DNA of 64,000 nt. Origin: Burkholderiales bacterium (lineage in GTDB: Bacteria > Pseudomonadota > Gammaproteobacteria > Burkholderiales > Burkholderiaceae_C). Below, piece after piece: positions 9,188 through 62,169 of this stretch (positions are counted from its first letter, which is position 1; the number at the start of each line of letters is the position of its first letter). The notes beneath the pieces are model-generated. The model saw nothing but the letters and a program-made list of their open reading frames with translations. It made no database searches and was not told the origin of the DNA. The stretch spans positions 22,094 through 86,093 of the forward strand of contig JBBQQX010000002.1 in NCBI GenBank assembly GCA_038215405.1, in the 5' to 3' direction. Both the position numbers and the translations under genes were made by a program.

Positions 9188-9236
9188 GAAATAGGGCCGT
9201 AGCCCCCGTGCAGCATGCCTGAGCAGCTATTTATTT
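9188..9236 (-). repeat. Element A copy (two-hairpin dispersed repeat), rdgB/rph junction
   Basis: Reverse complement: AAATAAATAGCTGCTCAGGCATGCTGCACGGGGGCTACGGCCCTATTTC. The TAG of TAGCTGC is the rph stop codon. The tail abuts the rdgB ATG. Confidence 0.7.
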
Positions 9237-9958
9237 AGTAATGATATTTTTTGCAGTTCAACCAGCTCGCTGATGCCTTGTTCGGCCAGCGCCAGCAAGG
9301 CATTCATTTCCTGGCGCGAAAATGCCGCTCCTTCGGCCGTGCCCTGCACCTCGACAAAGTGGCCAGCCCCGGTCATCACCACATTCATATCGGTGTCGCA
9401 TGCCGCGTCCTCTGTGTACGCCAAATCAAGCAGGGGCGTTCCCGCAACGATACCCACCGAGATCGCAGCCACATGCTCACGAATCGGCGACAGCCGCAGC
9501 TTGCCCTGCGCCAGTAACTGGGTCACCGCATCCTGTGCCGCCACAAAGGCGCCGGTGATGGCCGCGGTGCGCGTGCCGCCGTCAGCCTGCAGCACATCGC
9601 AATCCAGGTGAATGGTGCGTTCACCGAGCAGGCCCAGGTCAAATACCGAGCGCAGCGAGCGGCCAACCAAGCGCTGAATCTCCTGGGTGCGCCCGCTTTG
9701 CTTGCCGCGCGCAGCTTCGCGCTCGTTGCGGCTGTGGGTGGCGCGCGGCAGCATGCCGTATTCGGCCGTGACCCAGCCCTGGCCGCTACCTTTTTTGTGG
9801 CCCGGCACTTTCTCTTCGACCGAGGCCGTGCACAAGACCTTGGTGTTGCCAAACTCGATCAGCACTGAGCCCTCCGCGTGCATCGTGTAGCTGCGCGTTA
9901 TTTTGACCGCCCGCAGTTGGTTGGCAGCGCGCGCATCGAGTCTCAAAAATGGATGCAT
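9227..9958 (-). CDS. rph: Ribonuclease PH
   Basis: 243 aa. [38 protein letters not shown] is near-canonical RNase PH. Confidence 0.95.
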
Positions 9959-9997
9959 AAGGTCATGGTGAGCTTAGGGTTTTTCATGGCCAAGCCC

Positions 9998-58896: not shown

Positions 58897-59271
58897 ATGA
58901 CCATCAAATACACCCCCGACCACGAATGGATCAACATTGACGGCAACCTCGGTACCGTCGGCATCACCCAGCACGCGCAAGACGCCTTGGGCGACGTGGT
59001 GTTTGTCGACCTGCCCGAAGTCGGCAAGACCTACGCGCAAAAAGCCGCCGTCGCCGTGGTCGAATCGGTCAAGGCCGCCGCTGACATTTACATGCCCGCC
59101 AACGGCGAAGTCGTGGAAGTCAATGAAGCCCTGCGCGCCGATCCCTCATTGGCCAACAGCGACCCGCTCGCCGCGGGCTGGTTCTTCAAGGTCAAACTGG
59201 CCAATCCGGCCGACCTGGACACGCTGATGGACGAAACCAGCTACGCCAGCTACGCCGCCGACGCGCACTGA
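58897..59271 (+). CDS. gcvH: Glycine cleavage system H protein
   Basis: 124 aa. Lipoyl-lysine motif VESVKAA. Confidence 0.95.
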   Translation: MTIKYTPDHEWINIDGNLGTVGITQHAQDALGDVVFVDLPEVGKTYAQKAAVAVVESVKAAADIYMPANGEVVEVNEALRADPSLANSDPLAAGWFFKVKLANPADLDTLMDETSYASYAADAH

Positions 59272-59286
59272 CCCGGACCGACCACC

Positions 59287-62169
59287 ATGACTCAAAATGC
59301 ACTTTCGCCTTTGGGCGAACTGGAAAACTCGTGCGAGTTTATCGCCCGCCACATTGGCATTGATGCGGCCGACGAAGCCGTGATGCTCAAAGTCGTGGCT
59401 GCTGCATCACGCGACGAACTCATTGATGAGATCGTGCCGCGCTCCATCGCCCGCAGCCAGCCGATGGACATCCCCGCACCCATTTCTGAGGTGGCCGCAC
59501 TGGCCGAACTCAAGGCGATGGCAGCCAAGAACAAGGTGTTTAAGAGCTACATCGGCCAAGGCTATTACGGCACCCACACGCCCGGCGTGATTCTGCGCAA
59601 TGTTCTCGAAAACCCCGCCTGGTACACCGCGTACACGCCCTACCAGGCCGAGATCAGCCAGGGTCGCATGGAGGCGCTGGTCAACTTTCAGACCATGGTG
59701 ATGGACCTGACCGGGATGCCGATGGCCAATGCCTCGATGCTGGACGAAGCCACCGCCGCATCCGAGGCCATGACCATGGCGCTGCGCGCCAGCAAGTCCA
59801 AATCGACCACTTTTTTGGTGGACCGCGAGGTCTTGCCGCAAACGCTGGCCGTGATCCAGACCCGCGCCGAACCGCTGGGCATCGAGGTCAAGCTGTGCAG
59901 CGGCGATGAGGCCTTGAGCCAGGACAGCTTTGCGGTGCTGCTGCAATACCCTGGCGTGAGCGGCCTGGTGCGCGATGACCGCGCCCTGATTGCGGCGGTC
60001 AAAGCCAAAGGCGGCATCGTCATCATGGCGGCCGACCTGCTGGCATTGACCCTGCTTGCCGCCCCCGGCGGACTCGGTGCCGACATCGCCATCGGCAGCA
60101 CGCAGCGCTTTGGCATGCCGATGGGCAACGGCGGCCCGCACGCCGCCTACATGGCGTGCCGGGACGAGCACAAACGCACCATGCCGGGCCGACTGGTCGG
60201 CGTCAGCATCGACGTGCACGGCAACCCGGCTTACCGGTTGGCGCTGCAAACACGGGAGCAGCACATTCGCCGCGAAAAAGCCACCTCCAACATCTGCACC
60301 GCGCAGGTGCTGCCCGCGGTGATCGCCAGCATGTACGCCGTTTACCACGGCCCCGTCGGCTTGAGGCGCATCGCGCAGCGCGTGGCGGCCTTGACGGCGG
60401 TCCTGGCGCAAGGTTTGCTCGCCATGGGCTACCGCAGCGCCAACGCCAGCGCCTTTGACACGCTGACGCTTGACACCGGAGATGCTACAAGTTTAATAGC
60501 TGCTAACGCCCTATCCGCGGGGGCCAACCTGCGATTTGCTTCAAATATTTCCTTAAGTGTGTCGCTGGATGAGACCAGCACCCGCGCGGATGTGCAGGCG
60601 CTCTGGGGCTTCTTTGCCAAGCCCGGCCAGGCGGTGCCGCAGCTCAGCGACTTCGAACCGGGCGCCACCCCCCTGCTGCCCGCTGCCCTGCTGCGCACCA
60701 GCGCCTACCTGACGCACCCGGTGTTCAACAGCCACCACAGTGAAACCGGCATGCTGCGCTACATCCGGCGCCTGTCTGACTTTGACCTGGCGCTGGACCG
60801 CAGCATGATCCCGCTGGGCAGTTGCACCATGAAGCTCAACGCCACCAGCGAGATGATCCCCATCACCTGGCCCGAGTTTGCCGCCATCCACCCGTTTTGC
60901 CCGGCCGAACAGCGCGCGGGCTATGCCGAGCTGGACGAGCAACTGCGCGCCTGGCTGTGCCAGGCCACCGGCTACGCCGGCATCAGCCTGCAACCCAACG
61001 CCGGCAGTCAGGGTGAATACGCCGGCATGATGGCGATTCGTGGTTTTCATGCTGCACGCGGCGAGGGCCACCGCAACATCTGCCTGATCCCCTCAAGCGC
61101 ACATGGCACCAACCCGGCCAGCGCCGCGATGGCGGGTTTCAAGGTGGTGGTCACAAGCTGTGATGCCAATGGCAATGTCGACATGGCTGACTTGAAGGCC
61201 AAGTGCGAGCAGCACAGCGCCAACCTGGGCGCGATGATGATCACCTACCCCAGCACCCACGGCGTGTTTGAGACCAGCGTGAAAGACCTGTGCGCCCTGG
61301 TGCATTCCCATGGCGGGCGCGTGTATGTCGATGGCGCCAACATGAACGCGTTGGTCGGCCTGGCCGCGCCGGGTGAATTTGGTGGCGACGTGAGCCACCT
61401 GAACTTGCACAAAACCTTCTGCATCCCGCACGGCGGCGGCGGCCCCGGTGTCGGGCCTGTGTGTGTGGTGGCTGATCTGGTGCCGTACTTGCCCGGTCAT
61501 GGCGTCGGTGCGGTATCGGCAGCGCCGCTCGGCAACGCTGCGGTCTTGCCCATCAGCTGGATGTACTGCCGCATGATGGGCGCTGTTGGCCTCAAGGCGG
61601 CCACCGAGGTCGCCATCTTGAGCGCCAATTACATCAGCGTGCGGCTCAAAGACCATTACCCCACGCTGTACACCAGCATTTCTTCCGAGGGCAAGCCCGG
61701 CCGCGTGGCGCACGAGTGCATTCTGGATTTGCGCCCCTTGAAAGAGAGCAGCGGCGGTGTCCATGGCGTGACGGCTGAAGACGTGACCAAACGCCTGATG
61801 GACTATGGCTTTCACGCGCCCACGCTGAGCTTTCCGGTGCCCGGCACGCTGATGGTGGAGCCCACCGAGAGCGAAACGCTCGATGAGTTGGACCGCTTCA
61901 TCAACGCCATGATCGCCATCCGCGAAGAGATTACCAAGGTCGAGCAAGGTGTCTGGCCGCAGGGCAATAACCCGCTGAGCCACGCGCCGCATACCGCTGC
62001 ATCACTGCTGGGCGATGCCTGGGACCGACCCTACTCGCGCGAGTTGGCCGCGTTCCCGGTGCCCGGCTTGAAGCGGTCCAAATACTGGGTGCCGGTGGGC
62101 CGCATCGACAACGTCTATGGTGACCGCAATTTATTTTGCAGTTGCGTTCCGGTGGGGGATGGGCACTGA
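59287..62169 (+). CDS. gcvP: Glycine dehydrogenase (decarboxylating), P protein
   Basis: 960 aa. [16 protein letters not shown]; PLP lysine region [18 protein letters not shown]. Confidence 0.95.
60481..60539 (+). repeat. Element A copy inside gcvP (sense, in frame)
   Basis: GATGCTACAAGTTTAATAGCTGCTAACGCCCTATCCGCGGGGGCCAACCTGCGATTTGC. Closest relative of the intergenic copy at 45531. It is a locally AT-rich patch with rare codons. Confidence 0.65.

Follow-up and report, generated by a model that had tools for sequence, protein, structure and literature searches.

Element A, a dispersed 57-bp DNA repeat of Rhodoferax and close relatives, is accommodated without indels in well-resolved coding genes

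The 64,000-nt stretch analysed here (positions 22,094 to 86,093 of contig JBBQQX010000002.1 from a Burkholderiales bacterium, assembly GCA_038215405.1; hereafter the window) carries twelve dispersed copies of a repeat, Element A, which a preliminary description made from the letters of the window had presented as a structured, two-hairpin element. Comparison of these copies with related genomes, plasmids and viral contigs shows that the Element A family is real and specific to Rhodoferax and its close relatives within the Comamonadaceae, and that its action or recognition is independent of the direction of transcription. Copies inside well-resolved coding genes are accommodated without indels, mainly through synonymous or conservative codon choices, and position-specific constraint acts on every copy where it stands, in either orientation and in intergenic or genic sequence alike. 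The explanation that we favour, tentatively and at a probability of about 0.35, is that Element A may be a lineage-specific recognition sequence in double-stranded DNA, subject to sequence-biased upkeep and most like DNA uptake sequences.

A clade-specific repeat family inside and between genes

The twelve segments first listed are genuine copies of one family, and their alignment is free of gaps over about 59 nt. A profile built from them (nhmmer) gave 30.5-43.9 bits for the copies and 7.7 bits for the next-best match in the window, the latter being at the level of the top scores in 10 block-shuffled windows (4.3-8.7 bits), and the pattern TAGCTG-N4-CGC-N6-14-CG-N-GGGC was matched 6 times in the window versus 0 times in 100 shuffles. 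The possibility, raised at the outset, that shuffled sequence might contain as many matches was thus put aside within the window, in which the copies stand far above the shuffles. The density of one copy per 5.3 kb (12 per 64 kb) and the 24-nt tail GGACGTGGGCTAGAGCCTGATTTT common to the copies at 18178 and 52383 had been reported correctly, and Element A, a non-random dispersed repeat, indeed matches no Rfam family and could not be assigned to a named family of repetitive extragenic palindromes (REP), bacterial interspersed mosaic elements (BIME) or miniature inverted-repeat transposable elements (MITE). Two details had to be revised: the profile gave none of the four more degenerate candidates (30128, 48374, 52152 and 25659) a score above background, and the spacers, described as variable, are in fact fixed, with GCTA and TAGC 9 nt apart and CGC and CG 8 nt apart.

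Pooling of the window copies with those from relatives, from a pattern scan of metagenomes (at least 120 loci) and from viral contigs gave 189 unique copies, with the consensus nTT-GCTAy-(A/T-rich 8)-TAGCTGCTTgCGCA-(6)-ACGgGGGCTAGAGGCC-nAwwT. Three conserved G+C-rich blocks, GCTA, TAGCTGCTTgCGCA and ACGgGGGCTAGAGGCC, stand at invariant spacing, with A/T-rich tracts between and after them centred near positions 12, 32, 55 and 65. The 5' edge of the element is sharp (position 0-3), a weaker 3' extension, gAy...aAAA, reaches about position 69, and the tail reads ATTT or AAAT in a ratio of roughly 2:1. Coding and non-coding copies have an identical profile. The conserved span is 57 bp, with an information content of about 40-54 bits (about 40 bits from the window copies alone). 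Mean mutual identity of the window copies is 56% (maximum 64%), and about 25 positions are more than 90% conserved. Mutual information on the pooled copies revealed no variants linked over long range, and hence no subfamilies.

The source organism had rightly been placed among the Comamonadaceae, its XseA being nearest to Rhodoferax proteins (84% identical to that of Rhodoferax ferrireducens, and with a fully identical (100%) counterpart in a Logan assembly). A scan of genome contigs with GcvP, in which mostly distant taxa were found among the matches listed, provided about 12 useful loci (loci are numbered here with the prefix L). Besides the window, L002, L010, L068, L083, L084, L245 and L246 carry Element A; it is weakly present in L004, and absent or decayed in L001, L006, L029 and L007. 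A BLAST search of 72,556 plasmids with the consensus gave matches in Comamonadaceae only (Rhodoferax antarcticus, Diaphorobacter and Comamonadaceae bacterium OS-4), and the Element A pattern was found in 40 stretches from IMG/VR.

A sister variant shares with Element A its length and the arms GCTAy..ATAGCTGCT ... GCTAGAGGCC..ATTT, has a central palindrome, AGCGCTT-N7-AAGCGCT, and folds strongly (z = -3.2). It was detected in L004 (443-520), in 25 viral contigs (L247-L271) and on plasmids of Acidovorax, Comamonas and Diaphorobacter (NZ_CP049911.1, NZ_AP029020.1 and NZ_CP083452.1), and intermediates between it and Element A occur in L253 and L260. This sister family seems to be widespread in Comamonadaceae and in their phages and plasmids. 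In the plasmid records, the annotation under matches to Element A and to the sister variant is 'none'.

Two further arrangements deserve mention here. Phage contig L214 contains an immunity region (4240-5600) with a cI-like repressor gene divergent from a Cro/YdaS-like helix-turn-helix gene; beside the repressor gene, three consecutive early-region genes each end in an antisense copy of Element A, and in two of the three the encoded protein tail is AQAPxNIAQxATENVAxQGA, with the ribosome-binding site and start codon of the next gene immediately behind it. In L136, copies at 1664 and 2521 (-) lie 857 nt apart and have nearly identical flanks on both sides, which points to segmental duplication on a local scale and not to two independent copies.

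The extragenic picture implied by a first comparison with REP and MITE sequences is not supported: of the 12 window copies, 8 fall within coding genes and are read through in translation. These copies are located in long open reading frames (ORFs) with coding-type G+C content at third codon positions, in sense orientation in xseA, lpxK, gcvT and gcvP, and antisense in the genes for asparaginase, WaaA, a heptosyltransferase and an EamA transporter. Relative to transcription, 7 copies of the window are in sense and 5 in antisense orientation. Overall, 62 of the 189 copies are coding, with 33 in sense frame 0 and 18 in antisense frame 2; almost all coding copies thus use these two frames, a restriction of the kind that stop codons would impose, as the other frames are closed by the element's own TAG and CTA triplets. 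The four intergenic copies of the window fill their gaps completely, a layout also observed for metagenome copies and on an independently annotated Diaphorobacter plasmid, where cobN ends within the element and the gene for a TonB-dependent receptor starts beside it. Convergent and co-directional gaps account for 74 of 81 non-coding copies, and divergent gaps for the other 7.

The proteins encoded by well-resolved coding genes show no added segment in any of four cases (gcvP, gcvT, lpxK and asparaginase). GcvP aligns through the element without a gap with the P-protein structures of E. coli and Synechocystis and with 18 relatives, and the element encodes a native helix-strand segment that includes the conserved G-A-N-L-R. 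GcvT differs in length by 0-4 residues from element-free relatives, which use GC-ending codons at this place. LpxK is 2 aa longer than Aquifex LpxK (4ehw), with DHY and EG as native residues, and asparaginase is 3 aa longer than PDB 3nxk, with the native A-P aligned and the element in the inter-domain linker. The blocks of the element fall on conserved native residues (GANLR, DHY/EG, A-P), and the sites taken by coding copies are loops, linkers or helices rich in Ala, where the native residues are already compatible with the element. Two genes are ambiguous in this respect: the alignment of WaaA with PDB 4bfc crosses the element with a 13-aa gap in the homologue, and that of the heptosyltransferase with PDB 6dfe crosses it with gaps of 5 and 3 aa (+8 aa).

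The same gene positions are filled in other genomes of the Rhodoferax clade, at 71-81% protein identity. The gcvP and gcvT copies are found at the same codons in L002, L010 and L068 (Rhodoferax sp.), L004 has the gcvP copy only, and gcvP copies were also found in L127 and L193. Orthologous copies in xseA and lpxK are present in L083, L084 and L245, with that in xseA also in L246, and the copy between rph and rdgB is conserved in L245 and L246. The antisense copy in the asparaginase gene is kept in L084 despite the gene having moved, and that in the EamA transporter gene is kept in L068 (at 3578), without length change. No presence/absence polymorphism was found over 21 kb among four relatives.

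Constraint at these sites extends to synonymous positions. Element-bearing gcvP taxa retain the rare codons GCT ACn .. ATA GCT GCT CGC GCA .. CGA ATT; Variovorax encodes the same GcvP peptide with GC-ending codons and has no element. Among seven element-bearing taxa (75-81% amino acid identity), an invariant T occupies 3 of 8 four-fold degenerate sites of gcvP inside the element, compared to invariant A or T at 0 of 296 such sites outside, and the A+T content at third codon positions is 0.73 inside and 0.13 outside. In XseA homologues of at least 71% identity whose loop was matched by the search pattern (87 of 120 listed), conservation of the element peptide ALSNLYLLTQEGRGLEPD exceeds that of the loop next to it. 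Each orthologous copy retains private mutations, so that homogenising conversion is not frequent, and the combination of 56% identity with about 25 near-invariant positions, which neutral decay of insertions would not yield, argues for position-specific maintenance of each copy in place. As many copies within essential genes are translated through in frame without length change and are preserved letter for letter in related species, maintenance acts on the DNA sequence itself, and not on an RNA hairpin. L001 (CAIXNB010000122.1), which is among the closest GcvP relatives (80% amino acid identity, with 81% for L193), has GC-ameliorated, decayed remnants at both gcv sites (gcvT and gcvP), and its 22.9-kb locus is devoid of detectable copies; this lineage looks like one that has lost whatever maintains the element.

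Candidate explanations for the maintenance of Element A

If Element A is indeed a recognition sequence akin to uptake sequences, a putative lineage-specific DNA-binding machinery would prefer it, and copies would be created and maintained by short-patch replacement of resident sequence rather than by transposition. Such replacement would occur by recombination with incoming or ectopic DNA bearing a better match, following the same logic as the molecular drive that builds the uptake signal sequences found among Pasteurellaceae (USS) and the DNA uptake sequences that Neisseriaceae carry (DUS). Upon loss of the machinery, copies would be expected to decay toward GC-rich codons, as L001 appears to show.

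Several observations weigh against this explanation. With 57 bp and about 40 bits, Element A far exceeds known uptake sequences (9-12 bp core, about 30 bp extended), and as about 13 bits would be enough to specify 12 sites within 64 kb, the surplus points to a common descent of its copies. Scores in the window are bimodal (30-44 bits, then background) and partial proto-sites are missing, some of which would be predicted by gradual build-up through point mutation. The XseA loop comprises 32 aa versus 9 aa in canonical XseA (+23 aa, about 69 nt), its first part (AL..LY.L) looking native. The three clustered, mutually similar copies of L214 look like the product of local copy-paste, and an orthologous intergenic site of the sister family is occupied in L004, where the spacer measures 81 nt, and vacant in L006, where it measures 3 nt, with no element in L005. 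Moreover, 10 window copies lie on the plus strand and those at 9188 and 18178 on the minus strand (p = 0.04), and over all loci the C-rich strand carries the element's forward strand for 70 of 107 copies (p = 0.002 per copy), with a per-locus count of 36 versus 22 that is not significant; this asymmetry, weak and unexplained, is not predicted by an uptake-like signal. Finally, the literature searched yielded no documentation of natural competence in Rhodoferax, nor anything on uptake sequences or competence in Comamonadaceae. A description of Element A was likewise not found there, the genome paper of R. ferrireducens included.

The main rival, and a serious one even if it remains doubtful, is that Element A is a non-autonomous REP- or MITE-like mobile repeat mobilised in trans, for example by a REP-associated tyrosine transposase (RAYT), by another HUH-type enzyme or by some other transposase. 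Its genic copies would then have arisen by in-frame insertion with compensating deletion, or by ectopic gene conversion, and its conserved positions would reflect the needs of the enzyme. Descent from a master copy would fit the high information content, constant length and sharp 5' boundary; nevertheless, near-identical copies and subfamily linkage are lacking, and flank and end profiles of 185 copies revealed neither terminal inverted repeats nor target duplications. The longer XseA loop (by about 69 nt) speaks for an insertion; no insertion is evident in the four well-resolved coding genes. Similarly, the filled and empty sites of the sister family and the copies at successive gene junctions in L214 are suggestive of mobility, as is the presence of the element on plasmids and viral contigs besides chromosomes, whereas Element A itself showed no presence/absence polymorphism in the relatives compared, and the private mutations kept at orthologous copies imply that homogenising conversion is infrequent. 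The scarcity of non-coding copies in divergent gaps is REP-like, the sister family has a real central palindrome as in REPs, and the GTAGC/GCTAC motifs resemble REP heads. Decaying insertions, in turn, would not be expected to show the synonymous-site constraint observed, which indicates upkeep in place. REP and REPIN sequences go with a cognate gene for a RAYT (a Y1 HUH transposase), mostly with REPs on its flanks; a tblastn search with an E. coli YafM query, a weak test, detected no RAYT-like ORF in 2.9 Mb of loci.

An unlikely explanation is that Element A benefits the host as an architectural or DNA-transaction site for a nucleoid-associated protein, a topoisomerase or a repair or replication factor, held by weak selection in very large populations and with a role analogous to that of BIME/REP sites for gyrase and integration host factor (IHF), or of strand-biased words such as Chi. 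The evidence for upkeep at the DNA level is the same as for an uptake-like sequence, and the distances between the A/T tracts approximate multiples of 10-11 bp, which would suit bent or wrapped DNA. The density of one copy per 5 kb resembles that of Chi in E. coli. The modest strand asymmetry would also fit, although it loses significance when counted per locus. With about 900 sites of 40 bits apiece, selection on any one of them would be tiny, the presence of copies in phage genes and on plasmids is unexpected for a site that organises chromosomes, and no candidate protein is known.

We consider it quite improbable that Element A and its Comamonadaceae-wide sister variants represent a new class of genomic replicator or signal which overwrites compatible sequence, by short-patch templated replacement or uptake-biased recombination, instead of inserting into it. 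A 57-bp motif would in that case have been inscribed into essential genes through codon choice and held there for long, as a 'long uptake-signal-like' sequence with dialects in freshwater Betaproteobacteria.

The two hairpins under structural selection that had been proposed at first found no support. In 55 copies not ascertained by the search pattern, the covariation score of the proposed pairs was 0.072, versus 0.085 in shuffles (at least the observed value in 445 of 500 shuffles), and 72.5% of cells were paired in the proposed structure versus 73.3% in shuffles, so that stem covariation, named beforehand as a check, was not above that of shuffles. Folded as RNA, the consensus and natural copies did not surpass dinucleotide shuffles (z values of +0.8 to -1.1). 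Positions 8 and 16 are independent (C-A 61, T-A 63, C-G 21, T-G 36), compensation of the variants A7>C and T17>G hardly ever occurs, and the top values of mutual information belong to adjacent positions, with no long-range covariation. The 'compensatory change' in the copy at 33995 is a single, anecdotal case, and the 3' mini-stem, which uses conserved GGGC/GCC(C) bases in either of two registers, is absent from several coding copies, including those of gcvP and lpxK. GCTA/TAGC, TGCGCA, CTAG and GGCC are conserved short palindromes and do not attest RNA pairing.

A gathering-score Rfam scan of the whole window brought only glycine riboswitches to threshold and nothing for Element A, and a permissive scan of 30000-39200, a region with four copies, gave no match accounting for it. 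Two intergenic copies were scanned for sigma-70 promoter-like sites, and none were found. Among two copies scanned for intrinsic terminators (a stem of 5 bp or more, rich in G+C, with a T-run behind it), that at 52383 qualifies (3' stem and T-run, 52420-52433) and that at 45531 does not; the family as such does not count as a terminator. The 5' part of the element may loosely resemble boxA, and the 3' stem boxB. A structured two-hairpin RNA acting in transcripts as terminator, stabiliser, processing site or nut-like signal is very improbable: GCTA/TAGC and GGGC/GCC(C) are able to pair, one copy scores as terminator-like and many intergenic copies directly follow stop codons, but conservation is equal in sense, in antisense and within coding sequence, with neither covariation nor excess folding energy.

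The window copies and their surroundings

Table 1. Copies of Element A in the window, with profile scores and location relative to genes.
Copy	Positions	Strand	Score (bits)	Location	Orientation	Details
1	9187..9245	-	43.7	fills rph-rdgB gap	sense	5' 19 nt overlap rph end (stop TAA); 3' end abuts rdgB ATG
2	18180..18238	-	41.8	within xseA (17470-18834, -)	sense	translated
3	21589..21647	+	41.8	within lpxK (20754-21782, +)	sense	just ahead of TEKD motif
4	30239..30297	+	42.3	within L-asparaginase gene (29887-30909, -)	antisense	linker between N- and C-domains
5	33993..34051	+	36.1	within waaA/kdtA (33416-34807, -)	antisense	
6	35324..35382	+	43.9	within heptosyltransferase I-like gene (34804-35880, -)	antisense	
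7	38993..39051	+	39.8	fills ada-alkA / ogt gap (genes assigned by Pfam)	sense	ada-alkA stop at 39007 within element; ogt ATG at 39053, 2 nt past element
8	45531..45589	+	43.4	between convergent genes		
9	52381..52439	+	42.7	intergenic, just 3' of small gene (~52463-52717, -)	antisense to small gene	
10	53761..53819	+	39.4	within EamA-family transporter gene (53547-54458, -; Pfam)	antisense	
11	58497..58555	+	30.5	within gcvT	sense	frame 0, encoding GAAKILAQLAGGTGAATRK
12	60481..60539	+	38.8	within gcvP (59287-62169)	sense	frame 0

Pfam domains at the genes on either side of copy 1 are RNase_PH and Ham1p_like, and the neighbours of copy 8 are assigned to Host_attach/baeRF (ending at 45528, +) and to the large subunit of ribonucleotide reductase (45650-47413, -). 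Copy 4 is located between the two Pfam domains of asparaginase, which extend from residue 9 to 206 and from 230 to 338. In the XseA proteins of this clade, the loop (around residues ~195-232) consists of the element-encoded peptide and then a Lys-rich stretch of variable sequence; a few homologues are without the Lys-rich part yet have the element part. The gene of ~85 aa next to copy 9 (52463-52717, -) is nested in a mechanically called ORF (52457-53395) and has counterparts of 74-82% identity in L001, L004, L006 and L005. A carboxymuconolactone-decarboxylase-like gene converges on it in relatives, and this synteny is broken in the window.

Upstream of gcvT-gcvH-gcvP lie tandem glycine riboswitch aptamers (57331-57435 and 57458-57593, +; 48.7 and 47.6 bits), an ordinary arrangement. 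The listed start of the gcvT ORF at 57609 (TTG) is probably too far upstream, and MTTTSDN... looks like the real start. A match to the fluoride riboswitch over the 3' end of ada-alkA and copy 7 (38950-39031, +) reached 21.6 bits versus a gathering score of 34 (E = 0.019) and is probably spurious, as the downstream gene is ogt and not crcB. The window has a G+C content of 61.5% and contains neither tRNA nor tmRNA genes; between 24000 and 30000, within the second-longest copy-free interval (21647-30239), G+C drops to 0.56-0.58 compared to 0.61 overall.

Other labels were considered for the element and set aside. The idea that the two minus-strand copies mark a replichore boundary found no support, GC skew staying negative throughout the window without any switch. 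Manual comparison of the sequence with consensus motifs for sigma-54 sites, DnaA boxes (TTATCCAC-like in a minority of copies), an OxyR/LysR dyad, IHF sites, parS and dif was unconvincing. The resemblance of GGGGCTA and CTGCTT..GCGCA to stretches of tRNA-Ala was judged coincidental, as the matching parts are not collinear.

Significance and comparison with known systems

If the favoured explanation is true, hundreds of sites in the genomes of this clade bear a DNA signal that is long and rich in information and that constrains synonymous codons and even some amino acids in core genes, gcvP, gcvT, lpxK and xseA among them. The element would then offer a strong and testable way into a sequence-specific DNA machinery of Comamonadaceae, which abound in the environment, be it one for uptake or recombination or a domesticated transposase, and the lineages that keep or lose the signal would constitute a natural experiment. 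On the practical side, copies would mimic clusters of rare codons, bias analyses of dN/dS and codon usage, and seed breakpoints in assembly and recombination; they would also serve as a clade-specific marker for metagenome binning and for linking phages and plasmids to their hosts.

The features of USS and DUS in coding regions have been described (PMC2817400) and offer the closest comparison. As in USS of Pasteurellaceae and DUS of Neisseriaceae, Element A is present in hundreds of dispersed copies in both orientations, with a third to two-thirds of copies in genes without indels, only in tolerated frames and peptides and at poorly constrained residues (PMC2817400). Orthologous positions common to related species, lineage 'dialects' and a G+C-rich core flanked by A/T tracts are further shared traits (PMC2817400). 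The element is an over-represented motif in both orientations, in coding as well as non-coding sequence; unlike USS and DUS, however, it spans 57-70 bp instead of having a short core of 9-12 bp, shows no inverted pairs, has a bimodal score distribution and is found in clustered copies in a phage.

With the REP, BIME and REPIN sequences associated with RAYT, Element A has in common that it is short, abundant and clade-specific, that its non-coding copies favour the 3' ends of genes and convergent gaps, that it contains GTAG/CTAC-like motifs, and that its sister variant has a strong central palindrome. In contrast to the imperfect stem-loop palindromes of 20-40 nt that define REP and REPIN, it is not palindromic and lacks hairpin covariation (see the folding and covariation values above), and its location is not extragenic, given the coding copies in the window (most of the twelve) and overall. 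It also differs from MITEs in having neither terminal inverted repeats nor target-site duplications. Like the MIRU-type (mycobacterial interspersed repetitive unit) intercistronic repeats of Mycobacterium, intergenic copies of Element A occupy whole gaps inside operons, so placed that the preceding ORF terminates within the repeat and the following start codon adjoins it; unlike these repeats, Element A is not tandem and occurs in both orientations and within genes.

Rickettsia palindromic elements (RPE) represent another case of a repeat in frame within unrelated housekeeping genes and kept at orthologous sites (PMC10969869), and Element A resembles these and other in-frame MITEs in being read through in frame and retained at orthologous positions (PMC10969869). 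RPEs, however, are insertions of about 100-150 bp that add residues, whereas Element A adds no length in the four genes that can be resolved, with XseA, WaaA and the heptosyltransferase being ambiguous; it also differs from RPEs in not being palindromic and in having constrained synonymous sites. Element A thus resembles USS/DUS, REP and RPE sequences and yet fails to show a defining feature of each. What distinguishes it is the combination of a repeat of about 57 bp, its residence in housekeeping genes without length change, and its retention across genera by constraint at synonymous sites.

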